IMG/VR virus record: IMGVR_UViG_2713896784_000031
Strand: one strand, 5' to 3'
Length of the DNA stretch: 16,821 bases
Source: a virus
Taxonomy: Duplodnaviria > Heunggongvirae > Uroviricota > Caudoviricetes
Below are positions 1,553 to 8,751 of this stretch, one piece after another (position 1 is the stretch's first letter; every line of letters starts with the position of its first letter). The notes below the pieces were generated by a model, which made no database searches, was not told the DNA's origin, and saw only the letters and a list, made by a program, of their open reading frames with translations. The position numbers and the translations under genes were made by a program.

Positions 1553-1741
1553 TCACGAGGACAGAAGTTTCTCGCAATTAAAATTTATCAGCTTTACTTT
1601 CTGCTCTCTGGACACGCCTGCTTCTTTTTTCCCTGAGAGCATTTTTTCGCATTCTGATTTCGTTAATTTAGATTTTGAATATCTTGTCCAGTTAGTAGGA
1701 GTGCCACCTTCTTTTTCAATAGTGGCAGTTATTTTATACAT
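1553..1741 (-). CDS. Small hypothetical protein, YdaC-like, 62 aa
   Basis: The ATG at 1741 is preceded by GGAGGT at 5 nt; it overlaps the lar/ralR stop by 8 nt, suggesting coupling; position matches ydaC in Rac gene order. Confidence 0.5.
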   Translation of the reverse strand: MYKITATIEKEGGTPTNWTRYSKSKLTKSECEKMLSGKKEAGVSREQKVKLINFNCEKLLSS

Positions 1742-5854: not shown

Positions 5855-6409
5855 CTATTTAATACTCAGCAACTGCTCGACGGTCATATTTTTAATTGCG
5901 CTTCGGTTTACAAGAGTCCAGCCCTGTTTCTCCAGATAAAGGCGGAAAGTGTCCAGGGTACAGACGAGAGCGCCATCAGGAACGGTTTCAGTGAATTCGA
6001 CGTTGCCGAATTTGTCGAAGCGAACAACCAGAGTGCGCCCATCGCCCGGAATGATTTTGTTTGTGGGAGTGGTATTATTCTGGCGTAGCTCTGCTTCCAT
6101 GCGGTCGAACTCAGCGATGTAGGCCTCTTTGAATGCAGCGGCTTTTTTGCCAGTGAAACCCATCACCAGGAAAACGAAGCCGTTTTTGGTGATTTGGTAC
6201 ATTGGGAGTTTGCGCCCGGTTGAGTCGGTGTATTCACTTGGCTTAAAATTAAGCTCAGTGAATTCTGAGGAACATTCCAGAGCTTCAATTTTTTGAATGA
6301 CGTTTTTATGCAGCTTGCGGAAAAACTCTGCAACTGCAACAGACGTAGTGACAGCACGACCATTTTCGATGGTTACGTCAGGGTGAGAAAGGGTAGGGAT
6401 AGTAGCCAT
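5855..6409 (-). CDS. Phage Rha-family regulatory / antirepressor-like protein, about 184 aa from internal ATG
   Basis: From M99 of the track ORF, MATIPTLSHPDVTIENGRAVTTSVAVAEFFRKLHKNVIQKIEA...FKPSEYTDSTGRKLPMYQITKNGFVFLVMGFTGKKAAAFKEAYIAEFDRME fits the Phage_pRha domain consensus. The 98-aa upstream extension contains a terminator hairpin and is probably non-coding. Confidence 0.7.
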   Translation of the reverse strand: MATIPTLSHPDVTIENGRAVTTSVAVAEFFRKLHKNVIQKIEALECSSEFTELNFKPSEYTDSTGRKLPMYQITKNGFVFLVMGFTGKKAAAFKEAYIAEFDRMEAELRQNNTTPTNKIIPGDGRTLVVRFDKFGNVEFTETVPDGALVCTLDTFRLYLEKQGWTLVNRSAIKNMTVEQLLSIK

Positions 6410-6570
6410 GATGGCAGCCTCTAGTGATAAGTTGGTAAACTCACCACCGGAGGTGCAAATCTCATGGGTGGTGAGACGTACAGGGTTTGCACTACCGGTC
6501 ACTAGAGAATCCGGCCCGCCCGAAAACGGCCCCATACGCCCCACCATAATCTGAATGTGGCTGCGCTTTA

Positions 6571-6597
6571 CGCATAAAAAAACCGCTTTGGCGCGGT
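6571..6597 (-). terminator. Rho-independent terminator (minus strand): stem AACCGC/GCGGTT followed by a T7 run
   Basis: Plus strand reads aaaaaaaccgctttggcgcggtt; on the minus strand this is a GC-rich hairpin followed by TTTTTTT. Confidence 0.55.
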
Positions 6598-7114
6598 TAT
6601 GCGCTCTAGTGATCATCGGGGTGCAAATCCCGGCACCCGTTTTATGAGGTGCAGGTGCACTATAATTCCACCCGTTCTGGTTTTCAATAGCTACATCCAA
6701 CATTTTCTCTCACCTTTCATCACTGAAGTGAACTTTGTTGATGCGGTGCCTGGTGCCTCCAGGTGACGTTAACCAGTTAACAATTAACGCCGGATAATCC
6801 ACCCATAACACTGATGCTTTTAACTGTGCCGCGTGCGCTCAGCCGCATTCACCGCATCACAAAATTCACTTTAAAAAGGGGCGGCAGGGCAGCCACGGAG
6901 TAGAACTGATGCCGCCAAGACTACACACAGCAATGTCGTTATTTACAACCGGAGGCGCACTCCCACCATTTAAATTTAACAGACAAGACCGACTCTTTAT
7001 GGATATCGGAAATGCGCCTTCGTGTTGTGCCCGGTTTTATTTCACCACCTCCGGGCTTTGGTGGCCTCGGCTATACCCCTACAGCAAGAATATTGAATTA
7101 ATCCAATAAATGGT

Positions 7115-8089: not shown

Positions 8090-8332
8090 ATGAACAAAAT
8101 TTCAACATATCGAAAACAGCTTGGGCTGTCTCAAAGACAACTTGCTGTTCAGTTAGGGTGGATACAAAGCCGACTGGCAAATTACGAAGCAAATTTTCGT
8201 ACCCCTGGACTAGAGGAGTGCAGAAAAATTGTTTCTACCCTTAATCGGCTTGGCGCTCATTGTGGACTTGACGATGTATTCCCCCCAGACGGTAAGCATA
8301 GCGAAAACAGCATAGGAGCGGTTGATTCATGA
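8090..8332 (+). CDS. Cro-like HTH regulator, 80 aa
   Basis: GGAGG ribosome-binding site 7 nt upstream; HTH LGLSQRQLAVQLGWIQSRLANYE; divergent from the repressor; its stop overlaps the next gene's start (ATGA). Confidence 0.65.
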   Translation: MNKISTYRKQLGLSQRQLAVQLGWIQSRLANYEANFRTPGLEECRKIVSTLNRLGAHCGLDDVFPPDGKHSENSIGAVDS

Positions 8333-8751
8333 AAATCAGGCATGAGCACATCGAATCAGTGCTGTTAGCCCTGGCAGCCGAAAAAGGGCAGGCGTGGGTC
8401 GCTAACGCAATTACTGATGAATATCTGCGCCAGGGGGGCGGCGAATTGCCCCTGGTACCAGGCAAGGACTGGAACAATCAGCAGAATATCTATCACCGTT
8501 GGTTGAAAGGTGAAACGAAAGCGCAAAGGGAAAAAATTCAGAAACTGATCCCTGCGGTTCTGGCAATTCTTCCGCGCGAGCTGCGTCACCGACTCTGCAT
8601 CTTCGATACCCTGGAACGCCGTGCATTACTGGCGGCGCAGGAAGCGTTGAGTACGGCAATTGATGCGCATGATGATGCAGTCCAGGCCGTTTACCGGAAA
8701 GCACATTTCAGCGGTGGTGGGTCGCCCGGTGATTCTGTCGTAGTGCATTGA
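8329..8751 (+). CDS. ydaT: YdaT-like protein (CII-like regulator family formerly called a toxin), 140 aa
   Basis: Position directly after the Cro-like gene with ATGA coupling; length and sequence (MKIRHEHIESVLLALAAEKGQAWVANAITDEYLRQGGGELPLVPGKDWNNQQNIYHRW) agree with my recollection of Rac YdaT. Confidence 0.6.
   Translation: MKIRHEHIESVLLALAAEKGQAWVANAITDEYLRQGGGELPLVPGKDWNNQQNIYHRWLKGETKAQREKIQKLIPAVLAILPRELRHRLCIFDTLERRALLAAQEALSTAIDAHDDAVQAVYRKAHFSGGGSPGDSVVVH

Follow-up and report, generated by a model that had tools for sequence, protein, structure and literature searches.

Immunity through a C4-type antisense RNA has been a textbook mechanism since the descriptions of P1 c4 (1990) and P4 CI, and the work on Gifsy-1 IsrK extended it to lambdoid prophages. 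In P1 and P4, the C4 RNA is cut from a longer transcript by RNase P and others and represses in trans. Covariation between loop and target gives distinct specificities in P1 and P7, and this is the basis of P1/P7 heteroimmunity. The c4–icd–ant organization of immI in P1/P7 was described by Citron and Schuster (1990), as cited in PMC2864571 and PMC7313666; the logic of eta, kil, CI and seqA in P4 is summarised in PMC10111431, and the genetics of isrK–orf45 (STnc1160)–anrP in Salmonella Gifsy-1 was reported by Hershko-Shalev et al. (2016; PMC4825925). Gifsy-1 is the one system in which isrK is known to give a short terminated RNA together with read-through mRNA isoforms and to bind Hfq, and read-through of its terminator was demonstrated there. 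The model published for it stresses a structural switch in cis, with IsrK as activator, over a diffusible C4 repressor (PMC4825925).

In the DNA analysed here, a stretch of 16,821 nucleotides (hereafter the window), a preliminary description had pointed to short repeats at 6410-6620, directly upstream of a Rha-family gene. This region was identified, with a probability of about 0.92, as an IsrK–C4 antisense-RNA immunity cassette (P4 seqA–CI, P1 immI), located on the minus strand before the Rha-family gene. The cassette is of the known IsrK–C4 (seqA–CI) type and adds an instance, not a principle; a literature search for it in Stx or Rac-like E. coli prophages returned nothing specific. Its features are as follows.

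5855..6703, minus strand: long open reading frame of 282 amino acids, AUG at 6703, with an SD-like sequence AAGGUGAGAG at 6716..6707; Rha CDS of RefSeq.
6659..6687, minus strand: predicted sigma-70-type promoter, -35 TTGAAA (6687..6682), 17-nt spacer, -10 TATAGT (6664..6659); 10 of 12 positions match.
6576..6652, minus strand: IsrK-type leader or small RNA (P4 seqA region) carrying a1 and b1; Rfam RF01394.
6620..6629, minus strand: a1 target site (RNA GAUUUGCACC; core UUUGCAC at 6627..6621), located in the second hairpin loop of IsrK; one GGTGCAAATC copy.
6604..6613, minus strand: b1 target site (RNA AUCACUAGAG; core UCACUAGAG at 6612..6604) in a single-stranded IsrK linker; one CTCTAGTGAT copy.
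6576..6598, minus strand: intrinsic terminator at the end of the leader, with the stem AACCGC/GCGGUU (6598..6581) and a U-run after it, as in the isrK model structure.
6464..6551, minus strand: C4-type antisense RNA (P4 CI RNA; Gifsy-1 STnc1160/orf45 region); Rfam RF01695.
6499..6507, minus strand: C4 loop b' (RNA CUCUAGUGA), which recognises b1 and b2 by complementarity; the inverted copy of the preliminary description.
6486..6492, minus strand: C4 segment a' (RNA GUGCAAA), situated between hairpin 2 and the basal stem, which recognises a1 and a2 by complementarity.
6452..6461, minus strand: a2 target site (core UUUGCAC at 6459..6453); second GGTGCAAATC copy, beginning 5 nt past the C4 3' end.
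6440..6475, minus strand: a2-displaying hairpin, CUCACCACC (6475..6467) paired with GGUGGUGAG (6448..6440), a2 in the loop.
6418..6428, minus strand: b2 target site (UCACUAGAGG at 6427..6418); second CTCTAGTGAT copy, overlapping the Rha Shine-Dalgarno GAGG (6421..6418).
5855..6409, minus strand: Rha-family gene of 184 amino acids, the putatively regulated cargo; Pfam Phage_pRha at 2e-31, PHROG regulator/anti-repressor families.

Comparison with Rfam revealed that the isrK model matched at 6652..6576 over its full length (model positions 1-77 of 77) with 68.6 bits against a gathering score of 50, and that the C4 model matched at 6551..6464 on the minus strand (model positions 1-87 of 87) with 78.1 bits against a gathering score of 45. 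The leader has the two 5' hairpins and the intrinsic terminator of isrK, the latter also found independently of the model. The predicted transcript start at approximately 6652 coincides with position 1 of the isrK model, and the promoter-like site, which is conserved in relatives, is the counterpart of P4 PLE and of P1 P1c4 (P51b). The c4-a1b1 model gave a weak match at 6665..6613 (18.8 bits, under threshold); it is thus isrK, not c4-a1b1, that the leader matches. The C4 RNA has a 17-bp basal stem and two hairpins, and its recognition segments are complementary to the sites downstream: a' (6492..6486) pairs with a2 (6459..6453) over 7 pairs, and b' (6507..6499) pairs with b2 (6427..6418) over 10 contiguous pairs with -14.1 kcal/mol; b2 in turn covers the ribosome-binding site of the gene that follows. 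Upstream on the same transcript, within the isrK match, the targets occur a second time as a1 (6627..6621) and b1 (6612..6604). Between C4 and b2, the 9-bp inverted repeat CTCACCACC / GGTGGTGAG of the preliminary description was confirmed at 6440-6448 / 6467-6475, its start having been given one nucleotide off, at 6441. One arm is the 3' strand of the basal stem of C4, the other its complement downstream, and in unprocessed transcripts the resulting a2 hairpin can form in place of that basal stem. In the close set of relatives, 99.6% of this hairpin was paired and 2 of its pairs differed at both bases; compensatory versions occur in P1, P4, JL22, YYZ-2008 and L063.

The window shares with P1 the order promoter, a1, b1, C4, a2, b2 and start codon, with nearly identical spacings: 16 nt in the window and 14 nt in P1 from a1 to b1, 32 and 29 nt from a2 to b2, and 10 and 11 nt from b2 to the start codon. 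The a2 site begins 5 nt past the 3' end of the C4 model in the window and 4 nt past the annotated mature c4 RNA in P1, and b2 covers a Shine-Dalgarno sequence in both. In P1, however, b2 is followed by the 73-codon icd, whereas in the window no icd-like open reading frame intervenes; the first start codon past b2 is that of the 184-aa Rha gene, and b2 lies on the cargo's own Shine-Dalgarno. The P1 cargo, Ant1/Ant2, is unrelated to the Rha protein of the window, and the long in-frame open reading frame of the window is absent from P1.

The likeness to P4 extends to this open reading frame. In P4, the C4 model matched CI (8507..8420) and the isrK model matched the seqA leader (8692..8615); in both P4 and the window, a and b sites are present upstream and downstream of C4, the start context after b2 is the identical GAGGCUGCCAUCAUG, shared by Rha and P4 kil, and the start codon is at +55 past C4. 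Both also have a long open reading frame with its start above the internal promoter; it spans the RNA genes and joins, without a change of frame, the short gene targeted at its Shine-Dalgarno by the antisense RNA. This is the nested eta/kil design of P4. The nested short gene, by contrast, is the 65-codon kil in P4 (65 codons as counted here, in agreement with PMC10111431) and a 184-aa Rha-family regulator in the window. P4 is a satellite, whereas the cassette of the window belongs to a Rac-like lambdoid prophage, in whose early-left operon it follows DicF and precedes kilR-recET; the leader of the window has 77 nt and lies 25 nt from C4, while that of P4 lies approximately 108 nt upstream.

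In Gifsy-1, Rfam matches to isrK, c4-a1b1 and C4 occur in the same order upstream of anrP. The experimentally supported helix of Gifsy-1 (IsrK nt 18-31 with nt 159-175; PMC4825925) corresponds to a1:a' of the window, and the orf45 AUGs (nt 107 and 120) correspond to positions 6547 and 6535. The Gifsy-1 cassette differs in lying downstream of a Q-like gene, in the late region, and orf45 is a separate 45-codon open reading frame with an AUGA overlap with anrP, while the frame in the window is fused to Rha and extends above the promoter. The cargo AnrP is annotated as antirepressor-like; no similarity of the Rha protein to Gifsy-1 AnrP or to P1 Ant1 was detected, and therefore the cassette, not the cargo, is the conserved part. 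The designation of Rha as an antirepressor follows the Pfam and PHROG family labels and is used here in that putative sense.

Alignment of 30-35 distinct relatives revealed a conserved backbone with the variation concentrated in exactly six patches, namely the a and b segments. Among 30 sequences, pairing was 100% in the a1:a' helix and 91.5% in the b1:b' helix; both partners had changed in 6 of 7 pairs of the former and 6 of 9 of the latter, giving 12 of 16 inter-site pairs. Overall, 96% of cells were paired, compared to 39-46% in controls, and none of 500 shuffles and no slid register came near this value. The stems of C4 itself also covary: both bases have changed in 11 of the 27 internal pairs, of which 7 belong to the basal stem and 4 to hairpin 1. 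Pair counting by column was unusable for a2 and b2, whose register differs by 1-3 nt from type to type (a2 has a 3-nt indel, and b2 is offset by 2); a':a2 and b':b2 were therefore evaluated by alignment-free duplex energies and longest-pairing searches. Cognate duplexes were far more stable than non-cognate ones throughout: -9.1 against -3.3 kcal/mol for a':a2, -17.2 against -7.6 for b':b2, -10.6 against -4.1 for a':a1 and -11.3 against -5.0 for b':b1. The 30 relatives carry 11 b' and 6 a' loop sequences, and loop and target specificities covary between relatives as in the C4 family. The covariation of the patches is three-way and includes G·U wobbles, and therefore reflects RNA pairing, not operators. 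Beyond these relatives, a matching set of sites of its own was present in each of thirteen other modules, Gifsy-1 and P1 among them: a1/b1 near -76/-61, a2/b2 near +5/+36, and b2 overlying the Shine-Dalgarno. P4 and Gifsy-1 have the same layout, as do nine further phages or prophages; in P4 the leader is further upstream, and a1/b1 were located by eye within its isrK match.

From these data and, for use of the promoter, read-through of the terminator, processing of C4 and repression, by analogy with the homologues, we infer the following sequence of events. The promoter at 6687..6659 would launch a transcript at about 6652, most copies of which would end at the terminator (6598..6576) to give an IsrK-like RNA of ~77 nt with a1 and b1. 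Production of C4 and of Rha mRNA would require read-through of this terminator, as in Gifsy-1, and the extended transcript would contain in order C4 (6551..6464), a2, b2, the Shine-Dalgarno and the AUG at 6409. On the Rha mRNA, b2 would then be occupied by the C4 loop b' (CUCUAGUGA) and a2 by the linker a' (GUGCAAA). This pairing would bury the Shine-Dalgarno and block Rha translation; polarity would probably reduce the expression of kilR-recET in turn. The leader sites a1/b1, which have the same sequences as a2/b2, would compete for C4, either locking the long transcript in cis or, as free IsrK, titrating C4 and relieving repression as in Gifsy-1; their role is unsettled even in the model systems. 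The switch identified here would thereby keep an Rha/antirepressor-type gene, and probably kilR-recET behind it, silent in the lysogen. Since it is RNA-based and allele-specific, related prophages of different a/b types should be heteroimmune at this step.

One alternative assigns the whole effect to the cis lock: a1/b1 would pair with a'/b' in the long transcript (the 'structure A' of Gifsy-1), free IsrK would be a trans-activator, and C4 would not be a diffusible repressor. The Gifsy-1 genetics support both the helix between IsrK nt 18-31 and nt 159-175 and the trans activation by IsrK (PMC4825925), the helix positions are those of a1 and a' in the window, and long-range a1/b1:a'/b' pairing is present in the centroid structure predicted for the 253-nt leader. 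The predicted minimum-energy fold of this leader differs from the centroid fold, and computation therefore does not fix the structure in vivo. However, a2 and b2 covary equally tightly, which a purely cis a1/b1 lock does not require, and the longest duplex is b':b2 (10-13 pairs), placed on the Shine-Dalgarno. The processed RNA acts in trans in P1 and P4 (P1 annotation; PMC3632133; PMC10111431), and Gifsy-1 itself has the stable processed species STnc1160. A lock acting in cis alone is thus considered unlikely, the cis-lock and trans-repressor models not being mutually exclusive.

A further alternative takes the region to be plainly protein-coding: it would encode the 'Ash' domain at the N terminus of an Ash–Rha protein with two domains, and the repeats would be incidental to the coding sequence. 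This corresponds to the RefSeq and Pfam view: RefSeq annotates no RNA genes at the locus and calls the 282-aa CDS across both RNAs, residues 14-108 of its product match Pfam Phage_ASH (PF10554) at 2.6e-15, and an SD-like sequence precedes the AUG at 6703. The open reading frame, which begins upstream of the internal promoter, crosses IsrK and C4 and is in frame with the Rha AUG at 6409, is indeed preserved. It was without stops in 33 of 35 variants, compared to 4-12 stops in each other frame, and none of the 54 stop triplets in the variable patches fell in this frame (P~7e-4, counting distinct columns only). The comparison among cassettes, made without L063, showed the long frame to be open also in P4, Stx2a_1447, Stx1_14744, cdtI and Sal3, while no such in-frame open reading frame was present in the P1, Gifsy-1, JL22, YYZ-2008 and Yersinia cassettes.

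The distribution of variable sites by codon position was nevertheless flat in the long frame (51/49/49, p 0.97), whereas the Rha gene of the same genomes, used as positive control, had the pattern of a coding sequence (69/42/128, p 3e-11). The six patches shift radically in amino acids yet keep their RNA pairing, and both a promoter and an intrinsic terminator lie inside the frame. What Pfam Ash matches in P4 is not the epsilon protein but the old 'cI' open reading frame, which overlies the CI RNA gene (C4 match 8507..8420). The purely coding reading was rejected on the codon-position test, with Rha as control, and is regarded as very improbable. The frame is held open without constraint at the amino-acid level, as in the nested eta/kil genes of P4.

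Returning to the antisense cassette, the long open reading frame would be translatable only on transcripts from an upstream early promoter, since it starts above the internal one. If P4 eta is a guide, ribosomes crossing IsrK and C4 would free its expression from the RNA immunity, and the bypass may operate as in P4, where translation of the long frame from a regulated promoter upstream prevents Rho-dependent termination (PMC10111431). The N-terminal 'Ash domain' (PF10554) appears to result from conceptual translation of the RNA genes for IsrK and C4, and the practical value of the analysis lies in annotation, given that RefSeq has no RNA genes at the locus and that the Ash family apparently represents translated RNA genes. 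A broader proposal is put forward tentatively, as one that is possible but doubtful: PF10554 and the thousands of 'ash family protein' and 'Rha/Ash' annotations would represent not a protein domain but translated RNA genes, the frame being open only so that ribosomes from an upstream early promoter disarm immunity, with the a/b patches under a triple constraint (three-way pairing and no in-frame stop). In addition, cassettes of matching a/b type in co-resident prophages might cross-regulate one another, with IsrK as a C4 sponge, and an RNA-based inter-prophage immunity network would then exist in STEC. Up to 5 copies of the cassette occur per E. coli genome, and 973 E. coli genomes carry it; in E. 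coli 2011C-4251 it lies at 976.4-977.4 kb of NZ_CP027388.

In the literature, one Stx-phage paper took Rha/Ash to be protein domains whose function is unknown. PF10554 has served, in at least one published survey, as a marker of P4 epsilon; it does not match epsilon.

The repeats themselves had been interpreted in the preliminary description as arrays of operator or recombinase half-sites. That the motifs are DNA sites for the prophage repressor, Cro or a recombinase accords with short, repeated motifs clustered by a regulatory gene, one of them overlapping its start region, and with HTH repressor genes ~1 kb distant, but this reading is scarcely credible and was rejected on the covariation and the RNA family matches, because protein sites would keep sequence, not complementarity, and reject G·U-type substitutions, whereas here the copies, carried on one transcript in or beside RNAs above Rfam thresholds, are rewritten in relatives (at least 11 b types and 5-6 a types) with complementarity among three positions kept and G·U pairs, which are mismatches in DNA, included, the sites are 170-185 bp apart with the inverted copy within an RNA hairpin loop, and the P1 annotation has the identical layout as antisense RNA targets. 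The CTCTAGTGAT and GGTGCAAATC repeats are mutually complementary recognition sequences of a phage antisense-RNA switch, not protein-binding sites. The conservation of the motifs in related prophages, which had been suggested as a check, accordingly holds for complementarity among the three positions and not for the sequence of the copies. The suggestion that the region is a control point was well founded, the point being one for the Rha/antirepressor-type gene and probably for kilR-recET downstream, with one copy on the ribosome-binding site.

The positions given earlier agreed with the sequence to within one nucleotide. Exact copies of CTCTAGTGAT are present at 6419-6428 and 6604-6613, as described, and its inverted copy GTCACTAGAG is at 6498-6507 instead of 6499-6508. 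The GGTGCAAATC repeat is exact at 6452-6461 and 6620-6629, the first having been placed at 6451 and the second correctly at 6620. The repeats do lie directly upstream of the Rha gene, whose AUG is at 6409 and not 6410; the copy at 6419-6428 overlaps its Shine-Dalgarno GAGG (6421..6418) as had been noted, while the start codon (6409..6407), also said to be overlapped, is outside the motif. Allowing at most one mismatch, CTCTAGTGAT had 3 matches compared to 0.53 expected from shuffling of the whole window, and 5 of 200 shuffles reached 3, clustering not being demanded of the shuffled matches; the best evidence that the repeats are not due to chance is the covariation of the six patches in relatives. 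GGTGCAAATC also has an inverted partner, with 2 mismatches, at 6484-6493, so that each motif is represented by two direct copies and one inverted copy, all on one minus-strand transcript.

An Rfam search of the entire window, run at curated thresholds, revealed an isrK RNA and a C4 antisense RNA ahead of the Rha gene. With the predicted transcription signals, the features are as follows.

6687..6659, minus strand: predicted sigma-70-like promoter (TTGAAA, 17 nt, TATAGT), in front of isrK position 1
6652..6576, minus strand: isrK RNA (RF01394), 68.6 bits (threshold 50)
6598..6581 plus U-run, minus strand: predicted intrinsic terminator, which makes the isrK 3' end
6551..6464, minus strand: C4 antisense RNA (RF01695), 78.1 bits (threshold 45)
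6409..6407, minus strand: AUG of the Rha gene, 184 aa (Pfam Phage_pRha, 2e-31)

The order along the minus-strand RNA is promoter, a1, b1, terminator, C4 (b', a'), a2, b2, Shine-Dalgarno and AUG, where a1 and b1 are target sites in the leader, a' and b' the recognition elements of C4, and a2 and b2 target sites before the Rha start. In the window, a1 is GAUUUGCACC, b1 is AUCACUAGAG, the C4 loop presents b' CUCUAGUGA and its linker a' GUGCAAA (all as RNA). The 253-nt leader is predicted to be strongly stabilised (z -4.65) with alternative structures, which agree with the published two-conformer picture of Gifsy-1. The cassette is a known antisense-RNA immunity cassette, known in kind and found by standard models. 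The name 'IsrK–C4 immunity system' covers P4 seqA and CI as well as P1, P7, N15 and lambdoid Salmonella prophages (PMC3632133), and the motifs C4 and c4-a1b1 were defined in PMC2864571. The isrK and C4 pair adjoins a BRO gene in APSE phages (PMC7313666), and CI and seqA homologues occur within Bro-network genes of PICIs (PMC10111431). The window cassette differs from known IsrK–C4 systems only in its cargo (the Rha gene), its location (a Rac-like early-left operon) and its specificity type; the literature search found no paper describing the cassette in Stx or Rac-like E. coli prophages.

The preliminary description had noticed repeated motifs near the Rha gene and likened them to operator or recombinase-binding arrays that could mark a control point for Rha and kil/recET. 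The repeats are real, several of their coordinates having been off by one: CTCTAGTGAT has exact copies at 6419-6428 and 6604-6613 and an inverted copy at 6498-6507 (three matches in the window vs 0.53 expected), GGTGCAAATC has exact copies at 6452-6461 and 6620-6629 and, at 6484-6493, a partial inverted one, and a 9-bp inverted repeat, CTCACCACC/GGTGGTGAG, lies at 6440-6448 and 6467-6475. The CTCTAGTGAT copy at 6419-6428 overlies the Rha Shine-Dalgarno GAGG (6421..6418). Apart from the 9-bp inverted repeat, each of these items is one of six RNA recognition patches; the inverted repeat combines the 3' strand of the C4 basal stem with a complementary stretch downstream, which presents a2 in a hairpin loop.

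Comparison of 80 loci from viral contigs coding for relatives of the Rha protein yielded 35 distinct upstream regions, in which the backbone is near-invariant and variation sits in exactly six patches that change together. Examples of a-types are UUUGCAC/GUGCAAA, UUGCUAC/GUAGCAA, GUGGAAA/UUUCCAC, UUAGCAC/GUGCUAA and UUGGCCU/AGGCCAA, and of b-types UCACUAGAG/CUCUAGUGA, UCAUCAUGG/CCAUGAUGA, UCACUAACG/CGUUAGUGA and UGAUCAACG/CGUUGGUCA. Pair counts made for a named structure on a 30-sequence alignment showed that the a1:a' helix was 100% paired, with six of seven pairs changed on both sides, and the b1:b' helix 91.5% paired (6/9 changed on both sides), and the C4 stems covaried too. Overall, 96% of cells were paired, compared to 39-46% with the partners slid by 1-3 columns, and the observed values were reached by none of 500 shuffles. 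As the register of a2 and b2 differs between types, alignment-free duplex calculations were used for these sites. Mean duplex energies of cognate and non-cognate combinations were, respectively, -9.1 and -3.3 kcal/mol for a':a2, -17.2 and -7.6 for b':b2, -10.6 and -4.1 for a':a1, and -11.3 and -5.0 for b':b1. Cognate duplexes make use of G·U pairs, and the longest, b':b2, comprises 9-13 contiguous pairs, Shine-Dalgarno included. This pattern is what RNA-RNA recognition would predict. The DNA operator reading was rejected on the RNA family matches and the covarying complementarity, since DNA-binding sites would keep their sequence and not tolerate G·U-type changes; the idea of a control point is retained.

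The a- and b-types reassort independently among close relatives, one of which (L065) has the window's b-type but another a-type. Cassette matches were found in 973 of 5426 complete E. coli genomes, at up to five places per genome and at two in the source strain, so that cross-talk of co-resident prophages is possible. In one variant (L026), an unrelated sequence begins right at the predicted transcription start.

The annotation of P1 immI lists promoter P1c4, a1, b1, c4 RNA, a2, b2 and icd. Spacings in the window and in P1 are, respectively, 16 and 14 nt for a1-b1, 32 and 29 nt for a2-b2, and 10 and 11 nt from b2 to the start codon, and a2 starts, in the window, 5 nt past the C4 model hit and, in P1, 4 nt past the annotated mature c4 RNA. 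Rfam models also detected the isrK and C4 pair in Gifsy-1 upstream of anrP, in the P1-like phage JL22, in P4, where the RNAs matched are the CI RNA and the seqA leader, and in eight more phages or prophages. With the window counted, 13 of 14 modules have their own a'/b', to which a1/b1 (about -76/-61 from C4) and a2/b2 (about +5/+36) correspond; in these, b2 adjoins GAGG and the start codon lies 47-58 nt past C4. The P4 leader is further upstream, and its a1/b1 were found by eye within the isrK hit. In the close set, pairing in the hairpin presenting a2 reaches 99.6%, and compensatory versions of the hairpin occur in P1, P4, JL22, YYZ-2008 and the contig L063.

No similarity was detectable between the window Rha protein and Gifsy-1 AnrP or P1 Ant1; as the downstream proteins differ between cassettes, the RNA cassette can be regarded as a portable module. 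The start context after b2, GAGGCUGCCAUCAUG (6409-6423, minus strand), is identical in the window, P4 (kil start) and the Stx phages Stx2a_1447 and Stx1_14744, and the genes behind it differ, which places the cassette boundary at or just past the start codon. Two IMG/VR contigs (L024 and L064) carry relatives of the window's Rha gene (protein 81-86% identical) preceded instead by sRNA-Xcc1 (67.4 bits in Rfam; L024:1290-1500 and L064). There, AAACAGTTAAG has one copy upstream beside a terminator and a second on the Shine-Dalgarno AAGGAGG, and sRNA-Xcc1 itself contains an inverted copy, CTTAACTG; the logic is the same with a different RNA. Antisense cassettes appear to be exchanged ahead of a single cargo gene. 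In the lambdoid phages Stx2a_1447, Stx1_14744, cdtI and Salmonella 118970_sal3, the isrK-C4-Rha module lies in the rightward early operon directly upstream of replication genes (after cII in Stx2a_1447).

In RefSeq, a 282-aa ORF (6703..5855) is annotated as the Rha protein, and the stretch carries no annotated RNA gene. Its residues 14-108, the translation of IsrK and C4, match Pfam Phage_ASH (PF10554, 2.6e-15). In P4, PF10554 matches the historical 'cI gene product' ORF (8168-8584, minus strand), and this match overlaps the gene of the CI RNA, where the C4 model hit lies at 8507..8420; P4 epsilon is not matched by PF10554 and belongs to PF25738. One Stx-phage study took 'Rha/Ash' to be protein domains whose function is unknown, and PF10554 served as the epsilon profile in one P4-satellite survey. 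This annotation problem around the 'Ash' family is a by-product worth passing on. The frame in register with Rha was stop-free in 33 of the 35 variants (4-12 stops in each of the other two frames), and its indels (window 6410-6703, minus strand, and relatives) were net multiples of three. None of the 54 stop triplets in variable patches was in frame with Rha; by distinct columns only, 18 of 18 were out of frame (P~7e-4). Variable columns were flat by codon position in the RNA region (51/49/49, p 0.97) vs 69/42/128 in the Rha gene of the same genomes (p 3e-11). The frame is thus held open while its amino-acid sequence is without constraint, which suggests that selection favours the passage of ribosomes and not a peptide.

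P4 eta begins upstream of a constitutive internal promoter, overlaps CI and shares its reading frame with the short gene kil; kil translation is under immunity control, and translation of eta from an upstream promoter prevents termination (PMC10111431). The layout of the window's long ORF matches this design. In the survey, the modules with a long in-frame ORF were those of the window, of P4, of three Stx/cdtI phages and of one Salmonella phage; it was absent from P1, Gifsy-1, JL22, a P2-like phage, a Yersinia phage, E. coli U14A and YYZ-2008. The start of the long Ash-Rha ORF overlaps the upstream gene's stop by 4 nt in Stx2a_1447, Stx1_14744, cdtI and 118970_sal3, which suggests translational coupling of the kind described for P4 eta and alpA. 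Gifsy-1 has orf45 in place of the long ORF, with an AUGA overlap with anrP at its end and two AUGs corresponding to window 6547 and 6535. Expression of anrP requires translation of orf45, whose amino-acid sequence is reportedly variable (PMC4825925; PMC12197685).

Anatomy, covariation and frame statistics are what was observed for the window cassette; from P1, P4 and Gifsy-1 we infer how it would operate beyond these. In the lysogen, the internal promoter would give an IsrK-like RNA and, by read-through, a C4 precursor, whose b' and a' would pair with b2 and a2 and close the Rha Shine-Dalgarno. Untranslated Rha would probably mean less transcription into kilR-ydaE-recE-recT, located downstream on the same strand, and a1 and b1 would compete for C4, in cis or as free IsrK. 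When the early-left operon, which has a DUF1391 gene and DicF upstream of the cassette, is derepressed, transcripts would include AUG 6703, and ribosomes starting there would cross the terminator and C4, making expression insensitive to immunity.

Just upstream on the cassette's strand lie DicF RNA (6879-6929, minus strand; 54.7 bits, over threshold) and a sub-threshold STnc100-like match (6720-6889, minus strand; 41.8 bits vs 47), so that an early-left transcript would hold DicF, IsrK and C4 one after another ahead of Rha-kilR-recET. Further matches above Rfam thresholds were RalA, the antitoxin of RalR (1557-1735, plus strand; 219 bits), AgvB, the anti-GcvB sRNA of EHEC prophages (16303-16364, minus strand; 96.5 bits), a sok-like antitoxin RNA (13742-13842, plus strand; 60.9 bits vs 59) and a partial tRNA-like match (16057-16116, plus strand; 37.3 bits).
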